64,000 nucleotides of DNA from Geopsychrobacteraceae bacterium. GTDB taxonomy: Bacteria; Desulfobacterota; Desulfuromonadia; Desulfuromonadales; Geopsychrobacteraceae. The stretch is taken from assembly GCA_963676555.2 (NCBI GenBank), contig CAXXGL010000013.1:47860-111859 (forward strand), written 5' to 3'. The translations under genes and the position numbers were made by a program. Shown piece after piece: positions 34,191 through 58,333 of the stretch; positions within the stretch are counted from its first letter, which is position 1, and each line of letters begins with the position of its first letter. Under the pieces are notes generated by a model, which had not been told where the DNA came from, made no database searches, and saw only the letters and a program-made list of their open reading frames with translations.

Positions 34191-35501
34191 ATGATCTGGA
34201 ATGATGATTTTGAAACTCTGCCGCGCGAAGCGATCGAGTCACTGCAACTCAAACGCCTGCAGCAGACAGTTGAGCGGGTCTACGCCACGGTTCCGTTTTA
34301 TCGTCAGGCTTTCGACCGGAGCGGTTTGCAACCGGCCGACATCAGGCACCTTGACGATTTGCGCAGGTTGCCTTTTACGCTGAAACAGGACATGCGGGAC
34401 AATTATCCCTATGGCCTTTTCGCCGTTCCCCTGGAACAGATTGTCCGCATCCATGCTTCTTCAGGGACGACCGGCAAGCCGACCGTGGTTGGCTACAGCA
34501 GGCGCGATATCGAAACCTGGACCGAGTTGATGGCGCGTTCTTTCACTGCCGCCGGAGCGAATAAGGGGGATGTGATCCACAACGCCTACGGCTACGGCCT
34601 GTTCACCGGCGGGCTGGGCGCCCACTACGGGGCCGAGCGCATCGGTGCGTCGGTTATCCCCATGTCGGGTGGAAATACGAAGAAACAGTTGATGATCATG
34701 CAGGATTTCGGCTCAACGGTTCTGACCTGTACCCCGTCTTACAGCCTTTATCTGGCCGAAGCCGCGGCGGAGGAGGGGATCGACATCCGGAAACTCAAGC
34801 TTAAAGTCGGTATTCTCGGCGCCGAGCCCTGGAGCGAGAAAATGCGCCAGGAAATCGAAGAAAACCTCAACATTAAGGCCATCGACATTTACGGCCTGTC
34901 CGAAATCCTCGGTCCCGGAGTCGGCATCGAATGCATCGAGGCGCAGAAAGGCCTGCATATCTGGGAGGATCATTTCATCCCGGAAATTATCGACCCGGAA
35001 ACCGGCGAAGTGCTGCCTGACGGCGAAAGGGGAGAACTGGTTCTCACCACAATTACCAAGGAGGGGATACCGCTGATCCGCTACCGGACACGGGATATTA
35101 CCCGTTTGACCAGGGAGCCCTGCATCTGCGGCCGGACCCACGCCCGCATCGAACGTTTGAGCGGGCGCAGCGACGATATGCTGATCATCCGCGGCGTCAA
35201 TGTCTTCCCGAGTCAGATCGAATCGGTGCTGTTCAGCATCGAGGGCGTCGAACCGCACTACCAGCTGATCGTCGAGCGTGAAGGGAATCTTGACACCCTC
35301 GAAATTCAGGTCGAGGTCAACGAACAGACATTCTCCGACGAAATCAAAGTGCTGCAGGGCTTGTCGAATAAAATCAGAAAAGAGATCAAGGATCTCCTTG
35401 GTGTCACCTGCATTGTCCGTCTGGTCGAACCGAAAAGCATCAGCCGCAGCGAAGGAAAGGCCAAGCGGGTGATCGACAACCGCCGGCAGAACCCTGCATA
35501 A
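34191..35501 (+). CDS. phenylacetate--CoA ligase family protein
   Basis: 436 aa, PaaK-type adenylate-forming enzyme ([24 protein letters not shown]). Confidence 0.9.
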
Positions 35502-36002: not shown

Positions 36003-37316
36003 ATGAACCAAGCAATGAACATCTGGAGCAGGAAGGATGAGTGCCAACCGCGCGAAAAGATTCGCGACCTGCAATTGGAACGTCTGCAGCAAACTTTAAA
36101 ACTGGTTGCCGAACAGGTGCCTTGTTACCAAAAGAAGTTCAAGGATTGCGGCTTTTCCCATGAGGACGTCAAAGAACTTCACGATCTGCAACATCTGCCG
36201 TTCACCACCAAAGAAGACCTGCGTCTGAATTATCCTTACGGCATGTTTGCCGTGCCCATGCGGGACGTGGTCAGGATTCATTCTTCTTCCGGAACCACAG
36301 GCAAGCCGACGGTCGTCGGCTATACCAAAAAAGATATTGCAATCTGGACGGAACTGGTTGCGCGTTTTATGACGGCGGCGGGAGTGACCAACGAGGATAT
36401 TGTTCATATTGCCTTCGGTTATGGCCTGTTCACCGGGGCATTCGGCCTGCATTACGGCTCTGAAGCCATCGGCGCGTCGGTCATTCCGATCTCCGGGGGC
36501 AATACCGATAAACAGTTGATGATCATGCAGGATTATCGTTCCTCCGCATTGGTCTGCACACCGTCTTACGGACTCACTTTGGCGGATCGAATGGAAAAGC
36601 AGGGGATTGATCCGCACTCCCTGGCTTTGCGTGTCGGCTTGTTCGGCGGGGAGCCCTGGAGTGAACAGATGCGGTTCGAGCTGGAAAATCGCCTGGGGAT
36701 CATCGCCACGGATAATTACGGCCTCTCCGAAGTGATGGGGCCCGGCGTGGCGGGAGAGTGTCTGTGCAAATGCGGGATGCACCTGGCGGAAGATCATTTT
36801 TATGCAGAAATCATCGACCCGGACAGCGGTGAAGTTCTGCCGGAAGGTTCGGTCGGCGAACTGGTGTTGACCAGCCTGACCAAGCAGGCGTTCCCGATGA
36901 TTCGCTACCGCACCCGGGATATCACCCGAATTCACTATGAAACCTGTGATTGCGGCCGGACACTGGCGAGAATGGATAAGACGCGCGGACGCAGCGACGA
37001 CATGCTGATCATCAAAGGAGTCAACGTTTTCCCGACCCAGGTCGAAGAGGTGCTGTTCCAGATCGAAGGCTGCGAGCCGCATTATCAACTGATCGTCGAC
37101 CGGGTTGACAACGCCGATACCTTAGAAGTTAATGTCGAAGTCAATGAACGGATCTTTTTTGACGAGATGAAACACCAGCGCGAGTTTGTCGTCTCCGCCG
37201 AAAAGCGTCTGGCGTCGGTGCTGGGGGTCAGCGCCAAGGTCAAACTGGTCGAACCCTCCAGCATGAAACGTCACGAAGGTAAAGCCGTACGCGTGATCGA
37301 TCGGCGCAAGATATAA
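36003..37316 (+). CDS. phenylacetate--CoA ligase family protein (paralogue)
   Basis: 437 aa with the same motifs as 34191-35501 and clearly paralogous along the whole length. Confidence 0.9.
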   Translation: MNQAMNIWSRKDECQPREKIRDLQLERLQQTLKLVAEQVPCYQKKFKDCGFSHEDVKELHDLQHLPFTTKEDLRLNYPYGMFAVPMRDVVRIHSSSGTTGKPTVVGYTKKDIAIWTELVARFMTAAGVTNEDIVHIAFGYGLFTGAFGLHYGSEAIGASVIPISGGNTDKQLMIMQDYRSSALVCTPSYGLTLADRMEKQGIDPHSLALRVGLFGGEPWSEQMRFELENRLGIIATDNYGLSEVMGPGVAGECLCKCGMHLAEDHFYAEIIDPDSGEVLPEGSVGELVLTSLTKQAFPMIRYRTRDITRIHYETCDCGRTLARMDKTRGRSDDMLIIKGVNVFPTQVEEVLFQIEGCEPHYQLIVDRVDNADTLEVNVEVNERIFFDEMKHQREFVVSAEKRLASVLGVSAKVKLVEPSSMKRHEGKAVRVIDRRKI

Positions 37317-37386: not shown

Positions 37387-37463
37387 CGGGATGTGGCGCA
37401 GTCTGGTAGCGCACTTGACTGGGGGTCAAGGGGCCGGAGGTTCAAATCCTCTCATCCCGACCA
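37387..37463 (+). tRNA. tRNA-Pro (anticodon GGG)
   Basis: 77-nt cloverleaf read by hand. Acceptor CGGGATG/CATCCCG; D-arm GCGCAGTCTGGTAGCGC; anticodon stem CTTGA/TCAAG with loop CTGGGGG; T-loop TTCAAAT; encoded CCA. Confidence 0.9.
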
Positions 37464-37570: not shown

Positions 37571-37969
37571 TCAAGACTGTTTTCCCGAGGTCGGCCAATA
37601 CGACCGGGCCGGCCGGCAGGAGCCACAGGGATGATTCACTTCCCGGAGATCGGCGCCGATCCGCTTAATCGCCTGATTACGGTTTAAACCTTCAGCGGTG
37701 TAGCGATCGAACCGTTCAACGATGTAGCGGTAGTAGTCCTGCTGATTGGCTTCGCACTGTTCATTGAACTTAAGGGCTTCGGCGGCAGCCTGAAACTTGG
37801 CGAGGCGAGTTCGACTGTTGACGGAGGCGACCAGACCGCAGAGGGAATCGAGGATCCGGGCGAAATGAAGAAAGTGTTCAGTCGGCAGCGTGACAGTGAC
37901 TTGAACCTGATCGTCATCGAGAGGGGTAACTTTGAGAGTATCTTGGAGATAATGAAACAGCGAGGTCAT
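37571..37969 (-). CDS. hypothetical protein (orphan ORF between tRNA-Pro and dif)
   Basis: 132-aa ORF with no recognisable family. Its start codon lies 34 nt from the dif-like site. Confidence 0.4.
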   Translation of the reverse strand: MTSLFHYLQDTLKVTPLDDDQVQVTVTLPTEHFLHFARILDSLCGLVASVNSRTRLAKFQAAAEALKFNEQCEANQQDYYRYIVERFDRYTAEGLNRNQAIKRIGADLREVNHPCGSCRPARSYWPTSGKQS

Positions 37970-38002
37970 GGAGAGACCCCGCCGCCGGGAGATACAAAAC
38001 TA

Positions 38003-38030
38003 ACGTCGCATAATATATATTATGTCAACT
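38003..38030. other. dif: dif-like XerC/XerD recombination site (left junction of the element)
   Basis: ACGTCGCATAA-TATATA-TTATGTCAACT. Compare E. coli dif GGTGCGCATAA-TGTATA-TTATGTTAAAT: the inner 7 nt of the XerC arm and 9 of 11 nt of the XerD arm match. Positions 38012-38037 are repeated exactly at 48408-48433. Confidence 0.65.
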
Positions 38031-38122
38031 AAAATATTGTACGGCTAAACAGTCAGATAAGCGGCTATACGTTTTTAAAGGATAATCCCTTTTAAACTCA
38101 TCCCGCTTTACTGTCAAGCAAA

Positions 38123-39664
38123 TTAGTAGACTATCCGCAGTTCTCCGGTTGATGTTTTATAAACGTTGCCGCCTTCGGCCCCGCCAGCTATGGCCTCCGC
38201 ATTGTCGGCATAGGTCGGAATTCTCAATTTAAAAACACCCTGCGCCATTTCCCCTTCACCTTCAAACCGGAACCAGTCCCCATATCCACGCAGCACCCGA
38301 TAAGGACTATCAGCGCCGCCCGAAAGATAAATCCCATCCCCGGCGATTCTCACCCGTGGATAAACTTCCCCTTCCGGATTTATTGTCGCATCATAGAGCC
38401 CCTTTGTCGGGTAATAAACGTCAAGCGCCCCCCTATCGTCCAACTCTGAATATATCGCCCCTGTTGTATTGTCCTGCATTGATATTGCAGCCATGCTCGA
38501 CGTTCCCGGCAGCCCAACCGTCAGCGAATCATTCAATGTTTGCCCTTTGAAATTTCCAATATTTGCAGCAAAATCGTTTACCGCGAACTGGTTTTCATAG
38601 CCGCCAATAATAATATTCCTAGAATTACTTATGCTTGTAGACTCATCGTTTAGATCAGAGACAATCGACGGAATAACCCCGTAACCACCCAAGACCAAAT
38701 TCTGACCACTCCCCGCCAAAAACTCAAGGATCGGCCCCGATTCGAAACGACAATTCAGGAAAACATTTTGTGCCCACCTGACAGAAAAAGCCTTTTCCGC
38801 CGCACCTTCCATATTAATCCCAATGAATGTGTTACCGTTGCCGATTTCCGACAGATCGAGCGAAACAGAACCAACCCCGCCCAAGCCGCTATCATTCTTA
38901 ATCAAACCACCGATGAAAGTATTTTGATTTACCCACCCGTGAACCGAATTTGATGTATCAGGCGATGTAAATTTAATGCCGACTTTATTATTGCGGACAT
39001 ACTCAATATTAAACGTGTTGTCCGTGAACCCGGCAGAAACCCCATCATCGTCCGACCCGTAAAGCCTGACCCCGGTATGAAAATTTTCAGCCGATATATT
39101 AAATGTCGAATAGCGCTGATTAACCAGCAGGATACCGACAGAGGTCGAGTCTGTAGAATCCCACTCCAGCGCCGTTTTTTTAACCCGTATCACATGTTGA
39201 CAGATAACCGGCATTCTATCCGGCCCCGCTTCCGTTGCAGTTGTCAGACTACTTTCTACCTTGACCGCAACGCCATTCCCAGAGTAAAGCAACCGCGACC
39301 CATGCCCAAGGCGAAAACTAACACCCTGCGGCACTGTGACCGTGGTCGAGCCAATATAATAATCATGTTCCGGATTACTGGTTACAACCCTGTGACCCGA
39401 AGACAGCGCCGCTGCGATAGCCGCCGAATCATCTGTGATACCATCCCCGACAGCCCCGGCTGAGTCAATAGAATAGGCTTCGGGCAGGTAAGCACTGACA
39501 GTTCCAGAGCGCCCCGGTACGCCGATCATATCAGACCCAAGCCCGGCGTCGTTTGACATAAGTTGGCCGCGATTGACCCCGCCGAACCATGATGCAGAAA
39601 AAGCCGGGCCAGCCAGACCCGGCACGAACGCCAACAGAATAAAAAGTGTTTTAAAGAATCTCAT
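38123..39664 (-). CDS. secreted right-handed beta-helix (pectate-lyase-fold) protein; candidate spike/depolymerase
   Basis: 513 aa. Sec-type signal peptide MRFFKTLFILLAFVPGLAGPAFSA. The GDGITDDSAAIAAAL motif is typical of pectate_lyase_3/tailspike-like beta-helices, and the protein is rich in Gly/Asn/Ser beta-rich repeats. Confidence 0.7.
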   Translation of the reverse strand: MRFFKTLFILLAFVPGLAGPAFSASWFGGVNRGQLMSNDAGLGSDMIGVPGRSGTVSAYLPEAYSIDSAGAVGDGITDDSAAIAAALSSGHRVVTSNPEHDYYIGSTTVTVPQGVSFRLGHGSRLLYSGNGVAVKVESSLTTATEAGPDRMPVICQHVIRVKKTALEWDSTDSTSVGILLVNQRYSTFNISAENFHTGVRLYGSDDDGVSAGFTDNTFNIEYVRNNKVGIKFTSPDTSNSVHGWVNQNTFIGGLIKNDSGLGGVGSVSLDLSEIGNGNTFIGINMEGAAEKAFSVRWAQNVFLNCRFESGPILEFLAGSGQNLVLGGYGVIPSIVSDLNDESTSISNSRNIIIGGYENQFAVNDFAANIGNFKGQTLNDSLTVGLPGTSSMAAISMQDNTTGAIYSELDDRGALDVYYPTKGLYDATINPEGEVYPRVRIAGDGIYLSGGADSPYRVLRGYGDWFRFEGEGEMAQGVFKLRIPTYADNAEAIAGGAEGGNVYKTSTGELRIVY

Positions 39665-39670
39665 ATTTCC

Positions 39671-39835
39671 TCACTCAGAACCGCCGATTTTGAAATGATT
39701 CGGGCACAGTCGCAGTTCATCTTTCAATGTTGTTATTTCGGTTTCGTGCTTCCAAACCTTATGCACGATCCACGCAAATGCCCCGGTCTGCACAGATAGC
39801 AGAGCGGCAATAATAACAAGAAGAAATTCAAGCAT
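39671..39835 (-). CDS. small membrane protein (54 aa, not in ORF track)
   Basis: Hand-translated as MLEFLLVIIAALLSVQTGAFAWIVHKVWKHETEITTLKDELRLCPNHFKIGGSE. Its ATG overlaps the upstream stop (TGATG). It ends 6 nt before the next gene, whose RBS is GAGGAAAT. Confidence 0.45.
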   Translation of the reverse strand: MLEFLLVIIAALLSVQTGAFAWIVHKVWKHETEITTLKDELRLCPNHFKIGGSE

Positions 39836-40050
39836 CAGGCATCCTCATAATCAGGAATATTGAATATCCCCCGGAGCGCCTTCAAAACAGGAAGCATGGC
39901 ATCGTCAACCCTGCTATCGGACTCGGAAATCTTTTCCTCAATGATATCTATCAGTCCGTCAAGCCAGCGCTTTATTTGCTCATCCGGAAATGCCATAAGC
40001 AGAGCGTTGACGATGGAAGGAAGGATCATTTCAATAATTTTTGCTTTCAT
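39835..40050 (-). CDS. hypothetical acidic protein (71 aa)
   Basis: ORF with RBS AAAGGGGAG, preceded by a 100-bp AT-rich gap containing a promoter-like TTTACA-N18-TTATTA on the minus strand. Confidence 0.5.
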   Translation of the reverse strand: MKAKIIEMILPSIVNALLMAFPDEQIKRWLDGLIDIIEEKISESDSRVDDAMLPVLKALRGIFNIPDYEDA

Positions 40051-40151
40051 TGCACTCCCCTTTGTTAGAATAGTTAAATTTTTGTTCGTAAAAAAATGAT
40101 AATAAAAACAATCAGTTATGACCTGTAAAAAAGTTAAGATCCTGGTCGCAA

Positions 40152-40406
40152 CTAATCACCATAAATAGAACCTGTGTGAAACAGGTCATACATGTCAGCT
40201 CCGAATGATTCATCAGAGCCTGAAAGCCCTTTCCAGAGTCCGTCAAAGGCGCGATTTGCAATATTGTTTTCACTGGTCGGATTCAAAGCGCCGTCCGGTT
40301 CCGTGAACTCTGCGGCAACCTTCTTAATATTGCGCTGCTGCCACCAGATCAGACCGGCCCCGGCTGCGACCATGACAAGAACCGCTCTATAATCAATATT
40401 GATCAT
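40152..40406 (-). CDS. small membrane protein (84 aa, N-terminal TM)
   Basis: TM segment AVLVMVAAGAGLIWW. The start overlaps the SLT gene stop by 4 nt. Confidence 0.55.
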   Translation of the reverse strand: MINIDYRAVLVMVAAGAGLIWWQQRNIKKVAAEFTEPDGALNPTSENNIANRAFDGLWKGLSGSDESFGADMYDLFHTGSIYGD

Positions 40407-40879
40407 GTCAACCCCACATCTTTTGAAATATCGGAAACATAAGCGACCGTTTCAGCGGGCCATGACCGGCCCCGCTCAACATTTCCGATTCCGAAGTTAT
40501 ACGCAGCAAGCGCAAGCCGCCATGAGCCGAGACGCCCGAACAACCAACGGAGATAGCGCCCCGTCGCATCAATCGACTGATAAGGATCAAGCGGATCAAT
40601 GCCGTAATCCGCCGCTGTTCCAGGCATGAATTGCATTAATCCGAGCGCACCCGCTTGAGAAACCGCCGCCGGATCGTATCGGCTTTCTTGATAAGCGATA
40701 CGAGAAAGCAAACCGGCAGGGAGACTATAACGCTCTTCGGCCTGTTGAAATGCAGCGTCATACTGTTGCCCCGCTGCTGGCGTTGACCAGGCCGACTGAG
40801 GTTTTAACAGCAGATATAAGGCAAACGCCGCCGGAGCTACCCACTTTACCGCCCACTCTCTGAAGTCCTTTTCCTTCAT
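40403..40879 (-). CDS. lytic transglycosylase (SLT domain)
   Basis: 158 aa with an N-terminal hydrophobic segment. SLT motifs: YQESRYDP (catalytic Glu-Ser), GLMQFMP and AAYNFG. Confidence 0.85.
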   Translation of the reverse strand: MKEKDFREWAVKWVAPAAFALYLLLKPQSAWSTPAAGQQYDAAFQQAEERYSLPAGLLSRIAYQESRYDPAAVSQAGALGLMQFMPGTAADYGIDPLDPYQSIDATGRYLRWLFGRLGSWRLALAAYNFGIGNVERGRSWPAETVAYVSDISKDVGLT

Positions 40880-41448
40880 ACCTTCAGCACCGTTATTGCG
40901 ACATCAATAGCCGCCGCTGCCGGGTTGTAGACATAGATCGCCCCGCCGGTTTTAATGACCGCTTCTGAATAGGGATTCAAGGGCTTGCCCCTTTTGTCCC
41001 CAGTGTTTATGTCACCTATCCGCAGCTTTTCAGCGGATAGGTTTTCTATCAGGACTTCAATAGCGTTTGCATGACCGGCATAGACCAGCGTTGTCCCTGC
41101 TGCCGCGCACGACACATCCGCCGCCGTTTCGACCGTCAAGGATCGTTCAACCGGAGCGGTCAGGTTGGCAATTTCAATATCGTCAATATTGATCTGCCCG
41201 TTTGAGCTGTAAGCCTGGATCGTCTGAGCACTGGCCGTTTCTATCTGAAACGACATGGGCCGCTCATCAAAACCGGCAAAGAAGGTAAAACGCTTGTCCA
41301 CGTTTTCCGCCCTGCCGAGGATTGTGTTTTGAGGCCCTAATATTGTCAGCGTTACCGGATAGTCAGGCTTTTTGAGTACCAGCGACCGAGCGCCTAAAAT
41401 CTTCATGCTCTGACCGGCTGTCAGTGCTTGCGTGTGAGTATTAATCAT
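40876..41448 (-). CDS. beta-rich virion protein candidate (vertex/penton-like)
   Basis: 190 aa from ATG 41448, which overlaps the upstream stop (ATGA). No TM; composition rich in beta-strand formers. Function is inferred from position only. Confidence 0.5.
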   Translation of the reverse strand: MINTHTQALTAGQSMKILGARSLVLKKPDYPVTLTILGPQNTILGRAENVDKRFTFFAGFDERPMSFQIETASAQTIQAYSSNGQINIDDIEIANLTAPVERSLTVETAADVSCAAAGTTLVYAGHANAIEVLIENLSAEKLRIGDINTGDKRGKPLNPYSEAVIKTGGAIYVYNPAAAAIDVAITVLKV

Positions 41449-41840
41449 CCGTTTGCCCTCCAAATCCAGAGCGCGACAACACCGAGAACCCCGGCCCCTA
41501 TTGCAAGTTTCTGATAATCGACCGCGCCATTTGCCGTTTGAAATGCGGTCTGGATCGCGGCACCGGTGCGCTGGATTGCTTCGCTTGCGCTTTCCGCGAG
41601 TTGCTCCCTGTAATCCGCTGTTTCCCGCGTGCGGTTTTCTTCGATCTGTTCAGCAAAGCCGACAACGGTATCAAAGTTTTCTCCGCTTTCCTCGATTGCG
41701 ACCCGCGCAAGATCAAAAGCCCCTGGGTCAACCAGGGTATTATCAGAGCCATAAATAGCCACGGCCCCATTATCAGCACCCTGGGTAACGGTCGTTAGAT
41801 TTGTTGTGCTCTTCGATTTTGAACTTGAAAAAAGGCCCAT
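41445..41840 (-). CDS. C-tail-anchored membrane protein (131 aa)
   Basis: Ser/Thr-rich N-terminus, an acidic middle and a single C-terminal TM (LAIGAGVLGVVALWIW). Confidence 0.55.
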   Translation of the reverse strand: MGLFSSSKSKSTTNLTTVTQGADNGAVAIYGSDNTLVDPGAFDLARVAIEESGENFDTVVGFAEQIEENRTRETADYREQLAESASEAIQRTGAAIQTAFQTANGAVDYQKLAIGAGVLGVVALWIWRANG

Positions 41841-41844
41841 AGCT

Positions 41845-42027
41845 TCACCGCCTTCTCAATAACAGAATGACAACCACAACCCCGGCAAACAGAACGACAT
41901 TGTTCACCGCCTTAACAGGGCTCGTGTCACCATCGAAATATATAGAACCTCCGTGAACCGTTCCGCCATATGCCGAGCTTTCAGCATTAGCGGCAGAACT
42001 CAAAGAAGGCAAAATAGGAACGCCCAT
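41845..42027 (-). CDS. small C-tail-anchored membrane protein (60 aa)
   Basis: C-terminal TM VVLFAGVVVVILLL followed by RRR. Lies 4 nt upstream of the next gene. Confidence 0.5.
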   Translation of the reverse strand: MGVPILPSLSSAANAESSAYGGTVHGGSIYFDGDTSPVKAVNNVVLFAGVVVVILLLRRR

Positions 42028-42040
42028 AACCGACCCCCCC

Positions 42041-42367
42041 CTATTTCAACAGTTTCAACAGAACCGCAGTACCGAGCGCCCCGGCTGAGACATAAAGTGC
42101 CGTCTTGTTCAGTTGCAGCCCCCACAGATTGACCACACCTACCGGGGCCGGTTGACCGGCAGGAACAACGCCAGCAGCCGCAGTATCAGCGCCAGCAGCC
42201 GCCGGAGCCTTTTCGACCGGATCAGTGCCGAATTTATCCTCAGCCCAGAGAGTTCCGACCGTTCGCCCCAGGTCAAAGGCCGTATCGGAAAGTTTATTCA
42301 ACCAGCTTGAAAAGCCGCCGCCGCTTTGATTCGCTTCCGCCGCCGCCAGATTTGCAATATCTCCCAT
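42041..42367 (-). CDS. C-tail-anchored membrane protein (108 aa)
   Basis: Ala/Gly/Pro-rich linker and a C-terminal TM (ALYVSAGALGTAVLLKLL). RBS AGGGAAAAGAA upstream. Confidence 0.55.
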   Translation of the reverse strand: MGDIANLAAAEANQSGGGFSSWLNKLSDTAFDLGRTVGTLWAEDKFGTDPVEKAPAAAGADTAAAGVVPAGQPAPVGVVNLWGLQLNKTALYVSAGALGTAVLLKLLK

Positions 42368-42447
42368 TGTTCTTTTCCCTTCTGATAATAAAAAAGGGGC
42401 CGGGCCTATGCCCTAGCCCCTTTTCAGGTTGTTATTTTTCGTTACTG

Positions 42448-43254
42448 CTACAGTTGCGACAGCCGTGCATAGTATTCTGCAATGGTATTGACAACGCCGG
42501 TTGCTCCGACCGTCAATTCAAACTGCAGGCTTTGAGCATTGCCATTGTTGATCACCCGTTTCATATCACCGTTAACCACGGGGTCATAAACAAAGTGTCC
42601 GTTCTGCGCGGCCATGTCGCGTTCCTCCTGGAGAAACTGAGCGACAGTAACTGGAATTTGATCAAAAATAGCCAAGCCGTTTTTCTTGACGGTCAGTTCA
42701 GTCGGAGAGCCGCCAAAAAAATGAACCCGCTTGATATAGTTGTCAGTGCCAGGGCCATGCGGCAGGACAATCGGAAACTTTCCGGTCGAAGAAAAGTTGT
42801 TACCCTGGGGAATCATGGCCAGAATTCGGGTTTCTTCGGTCAGCGCTTGCGCCTCCGAGATTTCCGCATAACCAACCAGAGTCGGAGCGGTTGCCCCGGC
42901 GATAGTGACTTCAACGGTAAAGCTGGTCACGCCCTGCGCTGTCGGGATCGCCCCGGCATTCATCCCGGCGAGATTCGCAGCAATTTGTGCCGGTTCGGTG
43001 AAGTCGAGCGAGATATAACCCGCATCGTCAGGAATGCCCCGGTATTTGTTGATTGTGTCAAGCTGTGATCCGGTCAGATCGTAAAAGATTTTTCCGTTCA
43101 GCTTGCAGACGATCCGCGAAAGCATGGCCTTTGTCAGAGCAGTTCCTCCGAGCGCCAGAATGATCCGGTGATAGGTCGGCCCGAGTTCACATTCATGGAC
43201 CGCAGTACCAGCGGCAACCACATTCTGAAAAGGAAGCATTTTTTTTGTCAGCAT
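42448..43254 (-). CDS. major capsid protein candidate (PM2 P2-like, jelly-roll)
   Basis: 268 aa, no TM, beta-rich. It is the largest soluble protein of the structural block. Its length and N-terminal pattern (F.NV.AG......L..G.TY..I.L) resemble PM2 P2 as I recall it; not verified by search. Confidence 0.55.
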   Translation of the reverse strand: MLTKKMLPFQNVVAAGTAVHECELGPTYHRIILALGGTALTKAMLSRIVCKLNGKIFYDLTGSQLDTINKYRGIPDDAGYISLDFTEPAQIAANLAGMNAGAIPTAQGVTSFTVEVTIAGATAPTLVGYAEISEAQALTEETRILAMIPQGNNFSSTGKFPIVLPHGPGTDNYIKRVHFFGGSPTELTVKKNGLAIFDQIPVTVAQFLQEERDMAAQNGHFVYDPVVNGDMKRVINNGNAQSLQFELTVGATGVVNTIAEYYARLSQL

Positions 43255-43288
43255 GTCAGTCCCCTTTAATCAACAACGTCAATCAACA

Positions 43289-43450
43289 ATGTCAGCGGCT
43301 TTTTTTGCCATATCGCCAACAGTACCGCCGACAGCGTTACCACCAGCACGAAGCCCCCAGCCAACCAGACCGCCGACCGCGAGAGTCAGCACAGCCGTTG
43401 CCACAAATTTTGTGTCCAGAGTTACCCCGAAAAGTTTCATTTTTCGCCCC
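43289..43450 (-). CDS. small membrane protein (53 aa, not in ORF track)
   Basis: Hand-translated as MKLFGVTLDTKFVATAVLTLAVGGLVGWGLRAGGNAVGGTVGDMAKKAADIVD. RBS AAAGGGG upstream; one TM. Confidence 0.45.
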
Positions 43451-43505
43451 TTTGAAAGTCAGTTTACAAAATGATTATTTAAAACTGCCTAACCAGATAC
43501 AACAA

Positions 43506-43534
43506 AGCCGGAGCATTTACAATATGCCCCGGCT
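43506..43534 (-). terminator. hairpin between early and structural modules
   Basis: Minus strand reads AGCCGGGGCAT-ATTGTAA-ATGCTCCGGCT (one G-U pair), followed by TTGTTGT. The U-tract is weak. Confidence 0.35.
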
Positions 43535-43562
43535 ATTTTCAGCTCTACGTCAATACAGATCG

Positions 43563-43733
43563 TTATTTTTTAAATCTTTCAGCGTCCAGGCGTGACCATA
43601 CGCATTGCCTCGAAACGAAAATCCCGTACCTCAATTCAAGCCGATTTTTTATCTGTGTTGCGGTCAAATTATATTCCTTTTGAGCTTCCAACATTTCCGA
43701 CCAGACGTCATCAGGTATAACCTTATCAGCCAT
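43563..43733 (-). CDS. small HTH-like protein (56 aa, not in ORF track)
   Basis: Hand-translated as MADKVIPDDVWSEMLEAQKEYNLTATQIKNRLELRYGIFVSRQCVWSRLDAERFKK. The segment LTATQIKNRL..GI.VSRQCVWSRL looks like a helix-turn-helix. The ATG lies 4 nt after the upstream stop. Confidence 0.45.
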   Translation of the reverse strand: MADKVIPDDVWSEMLEAQKEYNLTATQIKNRLELRYGIFVSRQCVWSRLDAERFKK

Positions 43734-43736
43734 TGT

Positions 43737-44000
43737 TCACCCCTCCCGAAGCAAGGTTACATTTTCAATTTTGATCTGTTCCGGCAGGATCAAGCCGTCT
43801 GTCAGGTCTGAAAACTTCTGTCTTGCATTGACTGCTGCTGATTCCTGATTTTTCGCGAAAATTCCAATGGTTTTATGCAGCTTCTTAAATCTCATTCTCA
43901 CATCATATAAGTGCATCTGAGTCGTCCCTTCTCCGGCGATAAAGCCGAAAGAAAACCCGCCGAAAAGACCAGATTTCACAGCGGCTGTAATCTCCCTCAA
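43737..44000 (-). CDS. hypothetical protein (87 aa from TTG; 59 aa if ATG 43916)
   Basis: ORF-track ORF with a Gly-rich hydrophobic N-terminal stretch. The start codon is uncertain. Confidence 0.4.
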   Translation of the reverse strand: MREITAAVKSGLFGGFSFGFIAGEGTTQMHLYDVRMRFKKLHKTIGIFAKNQESAAVNARQKFSDLTDGLILPEQIKIENVTLLREG

Positions 44001-44039
44001 TCAGCCAGTAAAAGCCGAACGGTAGTCTTTGCCAGATCA

Positions 44040-44564
44040 TCAAAACGCCCTGTCCTTTGTCACCTTGCCGAATGACGGCACATAGAAAAACTGTCCCTGT
44101 TCAAGCTGCGGAACATCATCAATATATGGCTTCAAATCCGGGAAAGATCGCGCCAGCTCTCTGGCATCCTCCGAACCCTGGCGGAAAATAAAAAGGTTGC
44201 TGCACTGTTCGCGGATCGTCTTGTCAAGCATGGCCCCGCGCTGAGTGATAAAAAATGCTTGATGCCCTAATCCCCGGTGCATGGTTGCAATTTTCCGCAC
44301 AGCCCCGGCATGGGCACCGACCGTTTCCCCTGATTCATCCAGGACAAGCAAACAATCGGTTTCAGCTTCGGCCACTTCCAGAAATTCGGCAGGATCGCCG
44401 GTGATAAAATCAGCCAGAAAGCCGGGGTCAATCTTCGGATCGAGCACCAGGATTTTTTTATATTTCCCCGACCGGCGGAAGTGATCACGAATCAAGCGCT
44501 TAACTATTGCGCTTTTTCCGGTGTCGGTTTTTCCTGTGACCAGGGTATGAACGCCGCTTTTCAT
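44040..44564 (-). CDS. small P-loop ATPase (candidate genome-packaging ATPase, FtsK/HerA- or Zot-like)
   Basis: 174 aa, no TM. Walker A VTGKTDTGKS; Walker B LLVLDESGE. Confidence 0.75.
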   Translation of the reverse strand: MKSGVHTLVTGKTDTGKSAIVKRLIRDHFRRSGKYKKILVLDPKIDPGFLADFITGDPAEFLEVAEAETDCLLVLDESGETVGAHAGAVRKIATMHRGLGHQAFFITQRGAMLDKTIREQCSNLFIFRQGSEDARELARSFPDLKPYIDDVPQLEQGQFFYVPSFGKVTKDRAF

Positions 44565-44706
44565 TTTTTCTTTCCCCTCTTGCTTGCCTTTTTTCGCGTT
44601 CTACCTGTTGGCGTCTTAGTCACCCTTCCATCTGGCTGCAAATACATTCCACATTTTTCACACTTACATTATCCCGGACGATAAACCCACAAATGACGGC
44701 ACTTTT

Positions 44707-45618
44707 TCATTCCTGCGCCCCCTGCTCTTTTTCCTGCTCCGGCTTTTCCGCTGTGCGTTTGCCGGAAAGCCAGCCTTTTAACCGATGCCAGCGAATGCCT
44801 ACCCACTCCCAAAAAGACTGGCGGCGTTCCGGTCTGTCAGGATGAAAAACGATAACGCCGGTTGTGGTCAGCAGACCGCCGAAAAAGATCGCTTCCGGTG
44901 ATAACCTGGGGCCGCCGCCGCGCTTGATCATCATTTCAACCCCGCTTGCTTCAATCAGGTCATAGACTTTGACTTTGAACTGTCCTTGTCCAATCTCGTA
45001 ATTCATGACCTCTTTGACGGCCTTTTCCCCTGATACCTGTGACATAATTGCAGAGTGACCTGCAAGAATCGCTTTTGTGGTCAGGATTGCTTTTTGCTGG
45101 ATTGCGGCGGCTTCCGCTTCCGCGCTGGCCTGTACCTGCTCCGCCGCATCTGCATTATCAACCTTCTGCTGAATATTCGGCGGACGCTTCGGAAGTTTTT
45201 TACGGTCAGAAGCTTTTGCGGATCTCTTCAGCTTCCAAAAGCCCCGCGCTGTTTTCGGCGGAATGCCGGTTTTCGGATCAGCTTTATTTTCACAATAGTC
45301 CGGATGCCAATAACAGCCTGAGCTGTCTTTCAGAAAGCGCCAATCCTGCCCCGCTTCTGCTGCGGTTTTCTGATCCTGTTCAATTGTGCGTTTTTCCTGC
45401 GTAGCTTTGACGAAATGATCCTGTTTTTCCGGTTTTGCGTCTTCCAAACTTCTGGCTATTTCTTCTATGTGATCATCAGCCCCGGCAATTTCTTTTTCTT
45501 CAGGTAAGATAGGATCAGCCGCCGGTGGTTTTTCTTCCGGCGGCTGATTTTCGGAATGTTGCTTTTCGGTCGGTTCTTTTGTTTCAGGCGGGATGTTTTG
45601 ATCTTCTGACTTGTCCAC
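44707..45618 (-). CDS. Pro/Glu/Lys-rich low-complexity protein with C-terminal TM
   Basis: GTG 45618 is preceded by GGAGGT; the ORF-track start is 45669. The N-terminal half looks disordered (PPETKEPTEKQ..PPEEKPP), there is an Ala/Glu/Gln coiled region, and a TM AIFFGGLLTTTGVIVF. Confidence 0.55.
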   Translation of the reverse strand: MDKSEDQNIPPETKEPTEKQHSENQPPEEKPPAADPILPEEKEIAGADDHIEEIARSLEDAKPEKQDHFVKATQEKRTIEQDQKTAAEAGQDWRFLKDSSGCYWHPDYCENKADPKTGIPPKTARGFWKLKRSAKASDRKKLPKRPPNIQQKVDNADAAEQVQASAEAEAAAIQQKAILTTKAILAGHSAIMSQVSGEKAVKEVMNYEIGQGQFKVKVYDLIEASGVEMMIKRGGGPRLSPEAIFFGGLLTTTGVIVFHPDRPERRQSFWEWVGIRWHRLKGWLSGKRTAEKPEQEKEQGAQE

Positions 45619-45688
45619 TTTATGACCTCCGGTTGAAATAGCTACCAAATAGTAACTATCGTTTAGCACTTGACGCCGGTCAGGTCAA

Positions 45689-45719
45689 TATCAATGTGAC
45701 ATATTATGTCACATTGATA
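45689..45719. repeat. 31-bp perfect palindrome
   Basis: TATCAATGTGACATA-T-TATGTCACATTGATA, with 15-bp arms checked base by base. It overlaps the stop codon of the 45709-45915 ORF and lies about 70 nt upstream of the next gene. Confidence 0.95.
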
Positions 45720-45915
45720 AATCAGCCATGATCTGAAAGAGCAATCGGTTTGCTTGATCCAGTTCCATGTTGATGATTGTCACCCGCCCCGCGCCGTCAG
45801 TCGGGAGCATTTTTGAATGGTCGTTTGCATTCCGTAAAACGGACATGACATGGATAAGCTGATCGCGCAAATAGCCTTTAGTGATTTGTTTCTGCTGGGT
45901 TTCGTTGTGTGACAT
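45709..45915 (-). CDS. hypothetical protein (68 aa)
   Basis: ATG 45915 is preceded by AAAGGGA; the ORF track extends to 45942. No recognisable family. Confidence 0.45.
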   Translation of the reverse strand: MSHNETQQKQITKGYLRDQLIHVMSVLRNANDHSKMLPTDGAGRVTIINMELDQANRLLFQIMADLSM

Positions 45916-46119
45916 AAAAAATCCCTTTTCTAATGTTTTCAATAGGTTATCTATGATAAAGCATGTTTATGTTTGCGGAGCGTCAAGGCTGCATAAATCG
46001 GCGGATTCTGCTGCTGTTGCGTTGATTTTCCGCGCCCGCCAAAGATTAAAAACCTTTTCAGATTGAAAAAATTACTGTAAATTTTGCTGAAACTTTCACC
46101 CAAACCGCAGGAGGGAAAA

Positions 46120-46452
46120 TTGAAATATTCTGTATTGTTATTTGTTGCCGTCTTATTTCTTTCTGGATGTGCAAAACCGATTGTCATGCCAAGAGAGGGA
46201 AATGTGTACTCTTCAACCTTCACCGACAAAGACGCACAAACCGCAGTCAAAAAGGCGCTGAAGGGCGCTGAAGAAACCTGCAAAGAACAGGACAAAAGAC
46301 ACATAGTCATTGAAAGCGAACTGAACGGCGTACAGATCGAGCATGATTCCTTTACTAAGGTTGTCGCAGACACCACGCTCAACACTATGGCAGCTATCGG
46401 TCTTGATTTCCGTTCCGACAAAACAGCGAATATTCTTTTCAGGTGCGAATAG
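46120..46452 (+). CDS. lipoprotein (only plus-strand gene in the element)
   Basis: TTG 46120 is preceded by GGAGGGAAAA. Signal peptide with lipobox: MKYSVLLFVAVLFLSG-C. The mature part is about 90 aa. Confidence 0.6.
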   Translation: MKYSVLLFVAVLFLSGCAKPIVMPREGNVYSSTFTDKDAQTAVKKALKGAEETCKEQDKRHIVIESELNGVQIEHDSFTKVVADTTLNTMAAIGLDFRSDKTANILFRCE

Positions 46453-46458
46453 ATCACA

Positions 46459-47643
46459 TCATCCCCCGATCAATGCCAAATCCGGCATTTTCCACCGTTC
46501 AAAGACTCCCGGCGCCAATAGTTCCGGGAGTTCTTTTTTGCTGCAAAAGATCACCCCGGCGCTTTGATATTCAGACATTTTTGACAGGTAAAAAGAGTTT
46601 TTCCCCCAGGTCCGCAAACGGTAAATGAACGCTTGCCATACGTCCCGCCGATCAGTGAAGATCGTCTTGCCCTGGACAAGTTCAAGCGGATTTTTAAGTC
46701 TTTGCTTCTGATTATCCTGACCGGCGATAATTCCCCAAATCCGCCCCGCTTTGATGCCTTCAACCTCGAAAGTTTTCCCCAGGTACTTTCCGAGATATGA
46801 AAAAAGCTTTCCCGTGGCCCCGCCGTATGCCACCAGCGCATTTGTTCCGGCTTTCAGGTGCTTGTCATCACCGGAGCCAACCACGTTAAACCAGGAGCCG
46901 GAAAGCCAGCGGCGGAAGCTGTTAACCCGCTGAACCCCCTTGAACAGAATCAGACAATGAAAATGCGGAATCCAGGCACCCTTAAACCGGCCTGATTTCC
47001 GCTGGACTATTTCCATTTTCCACAGCAGACCGGAAAAGTTTTTCAACCTGCGGAGCCGCTTTCCGAATGTATCCAGGTCGCGCTTGATCAGTTTCCAGGA
47101 AAATTCATATTTTTCCCGCTTCCACCAGGCCGGAAACCAGCGCATTCCCGGCTGTGTGAAGTTGATTGTTTTCTGAGGATCGACCGCCGGGGCATCATCC
47201 GAATAAGTCAGAGTGCAGAACATCGACCGCGCCGCGGGCGATCGCTTGCCGCTGGCGCTGTACTTGTCAAAGTCAAAGCTCATCAGAACATCCATTAAGC
47301 GCTTTCGGCTATTTTTGGAAAAACCGACCACCTCCGACCGCCCCCCGCCGCCGGTCGCTTTGCCGGTTCCCTTCGGCTGTTCTTTTTTAAATGCTATTCC
47401 ACCGGGCAGAACTTCAATACAGGATCGCAAAGGGCGATTTTCTACCCTTTGCGACCATTCCAAGGATTCAATTTCAGGACAGGCCACAATCCCCCCGCCG
47501 CTGCGGTGAAATATGTGACCACCAACAAGCCCCGCCGCGCGGCGGCGTCTAAAATCACGCCAACGGGCGGAACGGCGAATTTTCAGCCAGTCCCGCCGCG
47601 CCCATTCTTCGACCGTTTCCCCTGGCCGGATCGCCGCTGTCAT
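46459..47643 (-). CDS. HUH rolling-circle replication initiator (Rep)
   Basis: 394 aa. Motif I FCTLTY; motif II PHFHCLI (HUH); motif III FSYLGKYLGK (Y..KY). The N-terminus is basic. Confidence 0.8.
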   Translation of the reverse strand: MTAAIRPGETVEEWARRDWLKIRRSARWRDFRRRRAAGLVGGHIFHRSGGGIVACPEIESLEWSQRVENRPLRSCIEVLPGGIAFKKEQPKGTGKATGGGGRSEVVGFSKNSRKRLMDVLMSFDFDKYSASGKRSPAARSMFCTLTYSDDAPAVDPQKTINFTQPGMRWFPAWWKREKYEFSWKLIKRDLDTFGKRLRRLKNFSGLLWKMEIVQRKSGRFKGAWIPHFHCLILFKGVQRVNSFRRWLSGSWFNVVGSGDDKHLKAGTNALVAYGGATGKLFSYLGKYLGKTFEVEGIKAGRIWGIIAGQDNQKQRLKNPLELVQGKTIFTDRRDVWQAFIYRLRTWGKNSFYLSKMSEYQSAGVIFCSKKELPELLAPGVFERWKMPDLALIGG

Positions 47644-47754
47644 GACGCAACCGGCTTAAATTCGATACCCTTCAAACCTTCAAGCCGCCTCATTTTTTTC
47701 TCTCACCCTCTGAGACAATCCCAAGGCATTTCCCATCAACAATCACCCGATATT

Positions 47755-47985
47755 TCATGACCGCCCCCCCAACCCCGGAACATAAACACAATGAACAAGT
47801 TCCAGCTCAGAATCACCCTCATTAATCCTCTTGACTATGAATGAAGAAGATGTACACGAACACTTAACTATTGGGGAAAATCCACCCTTAATAAAAACAG
47901 AGTGAGTAGACATTCTCTGACCACATCTAGGGCATAGAATAATTTCACCGCGATAGCGACAAACCAAGTCTATGAACATAACCAT
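47755..47985 (-). CDS. zinc-ribbon protein (76 aa)
   Basis: CPRCG ... C.C cysteine pairs. Its stop overlaps the next micro-ORF start (ATGA). Confidence 0.5.
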   Translation of the reverse strand: MVMFIDLVCRYRGEIILCPRCGQRMSTHSVFIKGGFSPIVKCSCTSSSFIVKRINEGDSELELVHCVYVPGLGGRS

Positions 47986-47994
47986 GGTTGCCCC

Positions 47995-48255
47995 CTACTG
48001 TATTTCTACTGTCTCAAATCGTTGCAGCCGCCCGTAAACTTCAGCAACCGCGCATTGAAGCCGTCCCCTTGTTCTCATTCTTTTTAGTGGCAATTGGTGG
48101 GTTTTTCTGTTCTGTTCTTCGTTGAATTTTGAAAGGAATGAATCAGATAGTTTAATTATCTGATCTAGTGACATGCGCCGCACGAGATCAACGGCGTGTT
48201 GATAAGACCTATCTTGATTGAACGCTGATAAAAATGCTTTCCTTCTTTCGTTCAT
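47995..48255 (-). CDS. hypothetical basic protein (86 aa), first gene of the element's minus-strand array
   Basis: ORF-track ORF with no TM and no recognisable family. Confidence 0.45.
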   Translation of the reverse strand: MNERRKAFLSAFNQDRSYQHAVDLVRRMSLDQIIKLSDSFLSKFNEEQNRKTHQLPLKRMRTRGRLQCAVAEVYGRLQRFETVEIQ

Positions 48256-48340
48256 GGTGGCTCACTTTCTGGCAAACGCCGGAAAGTATAACCGCCCAAT
48301 CTGACTTATGTCTGAATATTTAAATGTTTAATCATTACGC

Positions 48341-48370
48341 AAAAAAAAGCGGCTCTAATTATAGAGCCGC
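48341..48370 (-). terminator. strong rho-independent terminator just inside the right junction
   Basis: Minus strand reads GCGGCTCT-ATAATT-AGAGCCGC followed by TTTTTTTT. It lies between the dif-like site and the first phage gene, downstream of host qor. Confidence 0.7.
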
Positions 48371-48398
48371 AGATAAACTAGTGTAATGACTAACTTTT

Positions 48399-48426
48399 TC
48401 ACCGTGCAATATATATTATGTCAACT
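48399..48426. other. dif-like site with degenerate XerC arm (right junction)
   Basis: TCACCGTGCAA-TATATA-TTATGTCAACT. The spacer and XerD arm are identical to the left copy, but the XerC arm is poorly conserved. Confidence 0.55.
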
Positions 48427-48460
48427 AAAATATCTGGCTGGATAATATTTCAAGGTGTCA

Positions 48461-49423
48461 CTATGGAATCAACACTATTTTTCCATTGACCCCTGCCTGC
48501 ATGACCAATTCATGTGCTTCAGCCGCCTTGGCCAGCGGCAGCTGGGAATGAATCACCGGATGGTAGCGTCCGCGACTCAACCCGGCATAGATGGCGGCAT
48601 GAATTTGCGTCAGTTGCGCCTGTGTTGTGTTGAATAAAGACATCCCCATGATGGTTGAGTTTTTCCCCATGCTTTCGCGCGGATCGATTTCAATGCTGCC
48701 GCGACTGCCGATCACGACGACTCTGCCGAATCGACTCAACAGTTTAAGGTCATTGCCTAAATTGACATTGGCCAGCATTTCGAGAATCAGATCAACGCCG
48801 TCTCCGAAGGTCAATTCATCCACCGCAGCCAGATAGTTTTCTTCATTATGATTCAATGCGGCGAACGCCCCTTGCTTTTTTATCAGCTCAATTCCTTGTT
48901 CGGTTCCGGCTGTCCCGATAACCTGCATGCCTTTCGATCCGGCGATCTGAACCGCAGCCAGGCCGACACCGCCGCTGGCGCCATGAATCAGCACGGTTTC
49001 GCCCGGCATGGCGTGAGCACGATAATTGAGAGCGTAAAAAGCCGTGCTGTACGGCACTCCCAGTGCCGCACCGGCAGTAAAATCAATATTGTCCGGCAAC
49101 CGATAAACCTGATCTTCGGTGCAGACGATTGCTTCTGCGTAACACCCCGATAAGCTTTTGAAATTATAGACCCTGTCTCCTGTTTTGAACTTTCGTACCG
49201 CACTCCCTGCTGCGGTTACGATTCCGGCGGCATCGAATCCCGGAATATAGGGCAAATCCGGCTGTGCCGGATAAACACCGGATCGGATATAGGTGTCAAC
49301 GGGATTGACACCGATCGCTTCAACCTGGATTTTTACCTGTTTTTCCTCGGGTTCCCGACTCCCGACTTTGCGTAACTGCAACACTTCCGGGCCGCCGAAT
49401 GTCTCAACTTGTATTGCTTTCAT
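48461..49423 (-). CDS. qor: NADPH:quinone oxidoreductase (zeta-crystallin-like MDR)
   Basis: 320 aa. N-terminus MKAIQVETFGGPEVLQL; nucleotide-binding GASGGVG. Confidence 0.88.
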   Translation of the reverse strand: MKAIQVETFGGPEVLQLRKVGSREPEEKQVKIQVEAIGVNPVDTYIRSGVYPAQPDLPYIPGFDAAGIVTAAGSAVRKFKTGDRVYNFKSLSGCYAEAIVCTEDQVYRLPDNIDFTAGAALGVPYSTAFYALNYRAHAMPGETVLIHGASGGVGLAAVQIAGSKGMQVIGTAGTEQGIELIKKQGAFAALNHNEENYLAAVDELTFGDGVDLILEMLANVNLGNDLKLLSRFGRVVVIGSRGSIEIDPRESMGKNSTIMGMSLFNTTQAQLTQIHAAIYAGLSRGRYHPVIHSQLPLAKAAEAHELVMQAGVNGKIVLIP

Positions 49424-49486
49424 GTCTCAGACTCCTGTCTGCAAAGCGGAATAAGATATTGTGACCCTGTATATTTTTTAAGTATA

Positions 49487-51649: not shown

Positions 51650-51849
51650 TCGGCGAACATGGAGTTCAGTGCAGTCAGAATTTCATCGACATCCAGGCCA
51701 TGAGCCCGGGCGCCCTGGGCAATCGATTCCGTTGTCGCGCCAAGACAGCCGACACACCCGAGATGGAACTGCTCCAGGACTTTGGCGCTTTCCGGATAGA
51801 GTTGCAGAATTTCATAAAAGGTCATGTCTTTGGTTATTTTTTTCCCCAT
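51646..51849 (-). CDS. DUF1858-type small redox protein
   Basis: 67 aa from ATG 51849 (RBS GGGAGG). Pattern MTF.EIL..YPE....L...HL.C.GC fits DUF1858 / hybrid-cluster-associated disulfide proteins. Confidence 0.6.
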   Translation of the reverse strand: MGKKITKDMTFYEILQLYPESAKVLEQFHLGCVGCLGATTESIAQGARAHGLDVDEILTALNSMFAD

Positions 51850-51961
51850 GATATCCTCCCGCAACCTGAAAAGGCAATGGTTCCCGATCTCTTGTCCGTA
51901 ACCAACATCTTGCGTCGGTCAATACCATGGGATTGTCCCAGAAGAATGGGATAAAAGCAAG

Positions 51962-51991
51962 AAAAACAGGGCGTTGTCTACAACAACGCCC
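51962..51991 (-). terminator. rho-independent terminator after greA
   Basis: Minus strand reads GGGCGTTGT-TGTAG-ACAACGCCC followed by TGTTTTTC. Confidence 0.65.
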
Positions 51992-52012
51992 GGTCGTAAA
52001 GGCGGGAGGGAT

Positions 52013-52489
52013 TCAACTGTATTCGATATTGGTGATTTCGTAGACTTTAACCCCGGAAGGGACATTGATTGTGACTTCTTCATCAACGCAATGACCGATC
52101 AGCGATCTGCCGACGGGGGACGAGATGGAAATTTTACCGATTTTGATATCGGCTTCATCTTCGCCGACAATCTGATAGGTCACTTCCTTTTCAGTATCGA
52201 CGTCGAAAAGCGTCACTTTCGCCCCGAAAACGATCTTGTCGCTTTTGATGGTCGTCGGGTCGATAACCTGGGCCGTGGCTATTTTGTGGTTCAACTCTTT
52301 AATCCGTCCCTCGATAAAGCCCTGACGGTCTTTAGCCGCATCGTATTCGGCATTTTCGGAGAGATCACCGTGACTGCGGGCCTCAGCAATGTCCTGTACG
52401 ACCTTCGGCCGTTCAACCCGGGTCAGGTGTTTTAACTCTTCCTGCAGGCGCTGATACCCTTGGGCGGTCATGGGAACTGATTCGTTCAT
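52013..52489 (-). CDS. greA: transcription elongation factor GreA
   Basis: 158 aa with the conserved GDLSENAEYDAAK motif and an FKBP-like C-terminal domain. Confidence 0.93.
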   Translation of the reverse strand: MNESVPMTAQGYQRLQEELKHLTRVERPKVVQDIAEARSHGDLSENAEYDAAKDRQGFIEGRIKELNHKIATAQVIDPTTIKSDKIVFGAKVTLFDVDTEKEVTYQIVGEDEADIKIGKISISSPVGRSLIGHCVDEEVTINVPSGVKVYEITNIEYS

Positions 52490-52503
52490 TGCCTAAACTC
52501 CTT

Positions 52504-52534
52504 AAAAAAACAGCGGGCGGGAAAAACCCGCCCA
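52504..52534 (-). terminator. rho-independent terminator after carB
   Basis: Minus strand reads GGGCGGG-TTTTT-CCCGCCC followed by GCTGTTTTTTT. Confidence 0.7.
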
Positions 52535-52560
52535 CTGAGTCGATATTTTTTTCAAGCTGT

Positions 52561-55818: not shown

Positions 55819-55876
55819 CCACTGTTTTCCTTCGGAATAATTCGTTCGAGATCGCAGATTCTCAGATCTTCACAAC

Positions 55877-58324: not shown

Positions 58325-58333
58325 TCCTCCCCT

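Follow-up and report, generated by a model that had tools for sequence, protein, structure and literature searches.

Positions 38003–38030 of the window (the whole 64,000-nt stretch of Geopsychrobacteraceae DNA that was analysed) hold a 28-nt sequence at the left edge of a prophage, raising the question of whether this sequence is the chromosomal dif site of the host, whether the replication terminus lies there, and how the prophage makes use of it. A dif site is a 28-bp target on which XerC and XerD of the host act, once FtsK has activated them at the septum, to resolve dimers of the chromosome. The sequence is very probably the dif site of a Desulfuromusa-like (Desulfuromonadales) bacterium, placed at a local replichore junction and occupied by a 10.4-kb integrase-less PM2-like phage that has integrated as an IMEX (integrative mobile element exploiting Xer).

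Sequence and conservation of the site

The sequence has an 11-6-11 layout with the inner inverted repeats CATAA/TTATG. Its parts and its nearest chromosomal neighbours are:

38003–38030, plus strand: predicted dif site and left junction of the prophage, ACGTCGCATAA-TATATA-TTATGTCAACT (whole 28-mer, ACGTCGCATAATATATATTATGTCAACT)
38003–38013: XerC arm, ACGTCGCATAA
38014–38019: centre, TATATA
38020–38030: XerD arm, TTATGTCAACT
37387–37463, plus strand: tRNA-Pro(GGG), the last plus-strand gene ahead of the site
37571–37969, minus strand: ORF132 (132 aa), chromosomal, on the XerC side of the site and 33 nt away from it
48461–49423, minus strand: qor (quinone oxidoreductase; NCBIfam), the first chromosomal gene on the XerD side

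The first-pass annotation had described the sequence as close to the proteobacterial dif consensus and had proposed an alignment to the dif of Geobacter, a comparison that came out in its favour. The published dif of G. sulfurreducens PCA (ACGTCCCATAAGATATATTATGTAAAGT; Carnoy & Roten 2009, PMC2731167), from the same order as the host, agreed with the 28-mer at 24 of 28 positions, compared to 21 for the best of 300 block-shuffled windows. Agreement with the E. coli dif was 21/28, a match that on its own is borderline because the shuffle maximum was also 21 (300 shuffles), and a search of the window with the E. coli dif at ≤3 mismatches returned no match because the site has seven mismatches. 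The 28-mer occurs as a single copy in the 64-kb window (shuffles expect 0), and the dif copies of the window consist of this one full site and one degenerate IMEX junction. The layout, the inner repeats and a position at a local GC-skew maximum are shared with the dif sites of E. coli and G. sulfurreducens, and the XerD arm is more conserved than the XerC arm, as in proteobacterial dif. Differences from the E. coli dif fall at XerC-arm positions 1–4, at XerD-arm positions 24 and 27, and in the centre, which is the palindromic TATATA in the window and the asymmetric TGTATA in E. coli. As a perfect palindrome, this centre (38014–38019) gives the site no direction, and only the outer bases of the arms set its polarity; the reverse strand still scores 19–20/28 against the dif references.

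Scanning a 22-nt core of the site against species-representative genomes returned nine loci, and the identical 28-mer (28/28) was present in three Desulfuromusa/Desulfuromonadales MAGs (L002, L003 and L006). Two of these, both Desulfuromusa MAGs, hold the site empty. L002 has the order ORF132, dif, qor-recG with nothing inserted and with the start of ORF132 kept beside dif, and in L003 dif is followed directly by qor and recG with the insert absent, so that qor directly abuts dif in relatives lacking the prophage. The window stretch 37932–38038 (ORF132 start and the site) maps to L002 4368–4262 and the stretch 48408–52706 (site, qor, recG, greA and the start of carB) maps to L002 4290–1, with 66–75% nucleotide identity between the flanks; both mapped stretches are adjacent in L002 and overlap in the single dif only. 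Because the 28-mer is kept, unoccupied and syntenic in L002 and L003, it is a chromosomal site, into which 10,396 bp have been inserted in the window, and the 28-mer at the left junction is identical to the empty-site dif of the relatives (28/28). The prediction, made from sequence, that 38003–38030 is an ordinary chromosomal dimer-resolution (dif) site is supported. In the third MAG, L006, the identical 28-mer occupies a non-syntenic locus beside lipid-metabolism genes, with four of the five neighbouring lipid-metabolism genes on the strand pointing toward it.

Several minor observations were made at these loci. The dif core lay ~10–65 nt from a contig end in several MAGs (L001, L003, L005 and L006), as expected if assembly graphs branch where strains with and without IMEXs mix. 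At the other loci, the flanks were mostly too short for a GC-skew flip around the 22-mer to be assessed with adequate power. Two core matches from one Clostridiaceae MAG (L004 and L008) were rejected as termini, as the skew was ~+0.25 on both sides with no flip; they carry A-rich ‘XerC arms’ and are probably unrelated sites, either AT-rich or from mobile elements. In the window, ORF132 had no family match in Pfam, PHROGs or NCBIfam. Just upstream of tRNA-Pro lie two paralogous phenylacetate-CoA ligase (PaaK-like) genes (34191–35501 and 36003–37316, plus strand), separated by a 143-aa ORF.

The inserted element and its borders

The inserted DNA carries viral genes, and its main features and junctions are:

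38031–48398, minus strand: PM2-like (corticovirus-like, double-jelly-roll [DJR]) prophage, GC 49%, nearly all genes on the minus strand
38123–39664, minus strand: putative spike/receptor-binding protein, pectate-lyase-like beta-helix, the terminal gene beside dif
40403–40879, minus strand: lytic transglycosylase (SLT domain; Pfam SLT, E = 2e-25)
42448–43254, minus strand: P2-type major capsid protein, double jelly roll (Pfam P2_N, E = 2e-31; P2_C, E = 6e-32)
44040–44564, minus strand: small P-loop packaging ATPase, Zot/FtsK-HerA-like (Pfam Zot, E = 3e-4; PHROG 2666, E = 2e-14)
46459–47643, minus strand: putative rolling-circle replication initiator (Rep), weak match (REP_ORF2-G2P, E = 2e-4; PHROGs 942 and 3419)
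47995–48255, minus strand: 86-aa ORF, the terminal gene at the prophage end opposite the spike
38012–38037, plus strand: left copy of the 26-nt repeat AATATATATTATGTCAACTAAAATAT, reaching 7 nt past the XerD arm
48408–48433, plus strand: right copy of the 26-nt repeat AATATATATTATGTCAACTAAAATAT
48399–48426, plus strand: second dif-like junction, TCACCGTGCAA-TATATA-TTATGTCAACT

By gene content the element may belong to the Corticoviridae (P2 capsid, packaging ATPase and rolling-circle Rep on a circular dsDNA genome of ~10 kb): its capsid matched strongly, its ATPase moderately and its Rep weakly. The gene at the Rep position in two related elements (L010 and L011, described below) carries Rep_trans. 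The spike gene matched PHROG 18162 (tail fibre, E = 6e-7) and, weakly, Pfam Pect-lyase, and a gene at the spike position is also present in the related elements L010, L011 and L012. For the 86-aa ORF there was no family at E ≤ 0.01 in Pfam or PHROGs, with noise only at E ≤ 1, and the ORF was not recognisable as XafT or as a repressor.

The Pfam scan covered 19 ORFs of the element, with the threshold relaxed to E ≤ 1 for 10 of them, and may miss small proteins that have diverged strongly. Families of integrases, transposases or recombinases were absent from the Pfam matches of these 19 and from the PHROGs matches of the 10 ORFs scanned there. Nor did a DUF3653 (XafT) or HTH domain appear in the 19, even at E ≤ 1 for the 10 scanned to that level. 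As a viral P2-capsid insert in which no integrase was found and which is bounded by dif and a dif-like site, the element is therefore read as a PM2-like prophage integrated as an IMEX. The possibility that ORF132 or one of the small terminal ORFs has a XafT-like role was considered and set aside, as no DUF3653 domain was found. Integrase-mediated integration at tRNA-Pro was also rejected, the tRNA being intact, 540 bp away and outside the insert.

The sole convincing plus-strand ORF of the prophage (46084–46452, 122 aa) adjoins Rep and has a lipoprotein-type signal (…FLSGC); an ORF at the same position and orientation (6524–6880) occurs in the circular relative L011. Judged by these sequence features, it may be a superinfection-exclusion or accessory gene.

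The 26-nt direct repeat is perfect and defines a unit of 10,396 bp, which, with the empty site in L002 and L003, agrees with the earlier placement of the prophage exactly at dif. The right junction combines a perfect centre and XerD arm with a degenerate XerC arm, which is presumably phage-derived, and scores 18/28, the third-best dif match in the window. Identity between the junctions runs 7 nt (AAAATAT) past the XerD arm (38031–38037 = 48427–48433). This flank is not kept in other taxa, and dif flanks are reported to be highly variable; the 7-nt extension goes beyond what a crossover confined to the 6-bp centre accounts for. The related phage in L010 has a similar A-rich extension at both of its junctions (CAAAGAT and AAAAGAT).

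Skew, gene strands and polarised motifs around the site

The raw GC-skew profile of the window changes sign sharply at ~38 kb. In this raw form the switch is inflated by the prophage, which at −0.13 is much more strongly skewed than the chromosome (about ±0.03). On chromosomal sequence only, the two flanks are:

1–38002, plus strand: left replichore end, plus strand G-rich, skew +0.0385 (38.0 kb)
48434–64000, minus strand: right replichore end, plus-strand skew −0.0227 (15.6 kb), all genes on the minus strand

The flanks differed in skew (Mann–Whitney on 1-kb windows, p = 1e-4), and with the insert removed the cumulative G−C maximum and a two-segment likelihood changepoint both fell at position 37975, 28 nt from dif (2dLL = 23; support interval ~0.4 kb leftward and ~0.6 kb rightward). 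Among minus-strand genes, the skew of the plus strand was +0.054 on the left (7.9 kb pooled) and −0.023 on the right, a difference of 0.077 (z about 4), and because minus-strand genes differ in skew across the site the sign change is not a mere gene-strand artefact. Third-codon-position skew ran in the same direction, though weakly (right-hand versus lagging-strand genes, z about 1.9).

Genes on both sides tend to be oriented toward the site, as the first-pass annotation had claimed. Its count of 30 of 36 left-hand genes on the plus strand was too high, since about 22–23 of 33 were counted from a greedy ORF call with Pfam checks, and the real minus-strand genes on this side include those for a T2SSE ATPase, a DUF4388 protein, SecG, a phosphorylase, an AAA_26 protein and ORF132. 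Its statement that all 11 genes from qor to lepA are on the minus strand was matched by 11–12 of 12 genes from qor to beyond lepA, with the identities of infB, pnp, qor and lepA confirmed by NCBIfam.

The E. coli KOPS motif GGGNAGGG occurs on the left at 5989, 11169 and 32110, all on the plus strand and one inside a minus-strand gene, and on the right at 50855, 54062 and 63226, all on the minus strand. Polarity toward dif was complete (6/6, p ~ 0.03) for a motif that comes from E. coli, may not be the KOPS of this host, and is not over-represented (six found, nine expected); it is in keeping with a terminus and, with n = 6, is suggestive only. Overall, dif lies at a local replichore junction that is the probable terminus, a result resting on 54 kb of chromosomal sequence within a 128-kb contig of a draft assembly, and the earlier proposal that the window probably spans the terminus is sustained by the skew changepoint and by the gene-strand control. 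Co-location of dif with the skew maximum is textbook knowledge (PMC2731167) and a dif at the terminus is a standard feature; its confirmation here helps to orient the draft assembly and to fix the exact borders of the prophage.

Other readings of the 28-mer were weighed against this evidence. A chance AT-rich intergenic palindrome with no function would suit the central 17 nt (GCATAATATATATTATG), which are nearly palindromic and of low complexity, and the E. coli match of 21/28 that the best of 300 shuffles also reached, but the G. sulfurreducens match exceeds all shuffles, a mobile element targets the site exactly both in the window and in relatives, and the 28/28 identity in three other genomes, with flanks that are 66–75% identical or unrelated, effectively refutes coincidence, the probability of which is close to nil. 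It is also very improbable that the 28-mer is the attL core of the prophage, a dif look-alike serving a phage-specific recombinase while the true dif lies elsewhere. The site is indeed a prophage junction, its 26-nt repeat is longer than a Xer crossover needs, and some tailless Vibrio prophages at dif do carry integrases (PMC11630473); against this, the full 28-mer stands at the orthologous place in prophage-free relatives and again at the non-syntenic Desulfuromonadales locus of L006, agrees with a published dif at 24/28, and is flanked by housekeeping genes common to the empty loci, while the 19 element ORFs yielded no domain of an integrase, transposase or recombinase.

A further reading, improbable though less so than an attL core, accepts a genuine Xer site but takes the strand and skew switch to be local, the product of a past inversion or an operon boundary, with the terminus elsewhere. 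Only 54 kb of chromosome bear on the matter, the skew on the right is weak (−0.023), and gene orientation and skew are inseparable there because every gene on that side is on the minus strand. Set against these points are the changepoint 28 nt from dif, the opposite signs of skew in minus-strand genes to the left and right (difference 0.077, z about 4), and the 6/6 polarisation of GGGNAGGG toward the site. Further, in proteobacteria the distance between dif and the skew maximum is no more than a few kb to tens of kb (PMC2731167), and a related element sits at 47.5% of a closed Dechloromonas record. The reading of the site as dif at the replichore junction and probable terminus is retained below.

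Integration at dif and relationship to known elements

The attP reconstructed from the two junctions would be TCACCGTGCAA-TATATA-TTATGTCAACT, with the same centre and XerD arm as dif and a degenerate XerC arm. Xer-mediated exchange in the centre, presumably catalysed by the host XerCD, would link the XerC arm of the chromosome with the XerD arm of the phage, regenerating a perfect dif at the left junction and leaving a weak hybrid site at the right, beside qor. As the two centres are identical, both strand pairs should be exchangeable and the reaction reversible. By analogy with TLCphi and GGI (PMC9226527), the degenerate XerC arm would make the right junction a poor substrate, limiting FtsK-driven excision per division. 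The first-pass annotation had composed the functional dif of the left XerC arm, the spacer and the XerD arm, which is the composition found, and had made it dependent on excision, which is not the case: the left site is already a complete dif, so that dimers can be resolved with the prophage still in place.

In Vibrio and Neisseria, IMEXs have been studied in depth (PMC6744903, PMC9226527). Use of dif by tailless DJR phages was proposed in 2023 for NO16-like vibriophages (PMC9966536), and ‘dif-type DJR phages’ were catalogued in 2025 and described as IMEXs in Vibrio (PMC12715192). As dif-type DJR IMEXs were thus described in Vibrio in 2023–2025, the novelty here lies in a new member and a new host phylum: to the hosts of dif-targeting integrase-less PM2-like phages documented so far, Vibrio and Pseudoalteromonas, it adds an anaerobic member of the Desulfuromonadota. 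With the Vibrio/Pseudoalteromonas phages (NO16 ‘Asemoviridae’, PM2/Cr39582) the window element shares a length of ~10 kb, a P2-type capsid, the lack of an integrase, integration at dif and the regeneration of a canonical dif at one junction. PM2 and Cr39582 have a 17-bp one-armed attP made up of the XerD arm and centre (PMC12715192, PMC9966536), and the attP of the window element likewise shares only the XerD arm and centre with dif. The differences concern the host (Desulfuromonadota, compared to gammaproteobacterial hosts), the location of attP (flanked by the spike gene and the 86-aa ORF here, and by p15/xafT and p16/rstR in the Vibrio phages), the terminal genes (neither a p16/rstR repressor nor p15/xafT (DUF3653) was detected in the window element) and the att identity, which in the window element runs 7 nt past the XerD arm.

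Comparison with TLCphi and GGI (PMC6744903, PMC9226527) shows the same pairing of one canonical dif with one deviant dif-like site as a direct repeat, and the same full homology of the centres, which permits complete and reversible exchange; by the same analogy, the deviant arm is plausibly what shields the element against excision driven by FtsK. In the window it is the XerC arm that is degenerate, and in TLCphi and GGI the XerD arm, so the functional dif lies on the opposite side of the element, and no XafT was detected in the window. Like the XerC-first filamentous IMEXs CTXphi and VGJphi, the element apparently exploits host XerCD at dif and encodes no detected integrase, and in both cases successive integrations can build arrays (the L010 locus holds an element and a remnant). 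CTXphi and VGJphi are ssDNA inoviruses, whereas the window virus is presumably a dsDNA corticovirus-like phage; CTXphi integrates irreversibly through a folded ssDNA attP, whereas a conventional duplex attP with a centre identical to that of dif is presumed for the window element.

It is unlikely, though not far-fetched, that the element and its relatives in Desulfuromonadota and Betaproteobacteria form a distinct IMEX class using a novel Xer activation or direction. The traits that would set such a class apart are a DJR phage, an attP of XerD arm and centre, identity past the XerD arm, and neither XafT nor integrase; one of the small terminal ORFs might, for instance, encode a new activation factor, or the recognised sequence might reach beyond the 28 bp. 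On the preferred reading, of a dif-type phage integrated as an IMEX, the locus provides a clean attB/attL/attR set for studying Xer use without a recognisable XafT.

Homologues of the capsid protein number 393, and many of them lie on contigs of ~10–11 kb. A single-protein scan of viral contigs with the capsid found no relative, and tblastn against GenBank phages found Vibrio DJR phages only, which at about 25% capsid identity are too distant to be used for an att comparison. In L010 (Logan SRR26541471; capsid 82% identical to that of the window), positions 1450–15600 carry an array at the same locus: recG/qor, a remnant of 2.7 kb that includes a spike-like gene of 708 aa, a dif-like site (ATATATTATAA-TAGATA-TTATGTTAACT), an 11.4-kb PM2-like element and a full dif (ACGTCGCATAA-TGTATA-TTATGTAAACT). 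This order suggests that the array arose by successive integrations. L011 and L012 are circularly permuted contigs of 10,983 bp with a 30-nt terminal overlap, giving a 10,953-bp genome that was found in six samples (capsid 59% identical), and by their sequence they appear to be a free or episomal relative. Their candidate attP (TTACCATATAG-GATATA-TTACGTAAACT, ~4011, minus strand) falls between the spike gene and small ORFs, the position it has in the circularised window element.

The relatives further extend the dif-targeting PM2-like phages to Dechloromonas and Sulfuricella. A locus in a Sulfuricella MAG (L014) is arranged in the same way as the window. In Dechloromonas sp. HYN0024 (closed genome, CP031842.1; locus L013), an integrase-less related element lies at ~1.55 Mb, 47.5% of the 3.26-Mb record and its presumed terminus. 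This element is bounded by ATCGCGCATAA-TTTGTA-CTATTTGGACC (4503–4530 of the locus) and ACAGCGCATAA-TTTGTA-TTATGTAAAGT (15973–16000), the second of which agrees with the published D. aromatica dif at 23/28. Here the arrangement is the mirror image, with the XerD arm degenerate as in TLCphi and GGI, so that one capsid family includes both arrangements, a degenerate XerC arm or a degenerate XerD arm.
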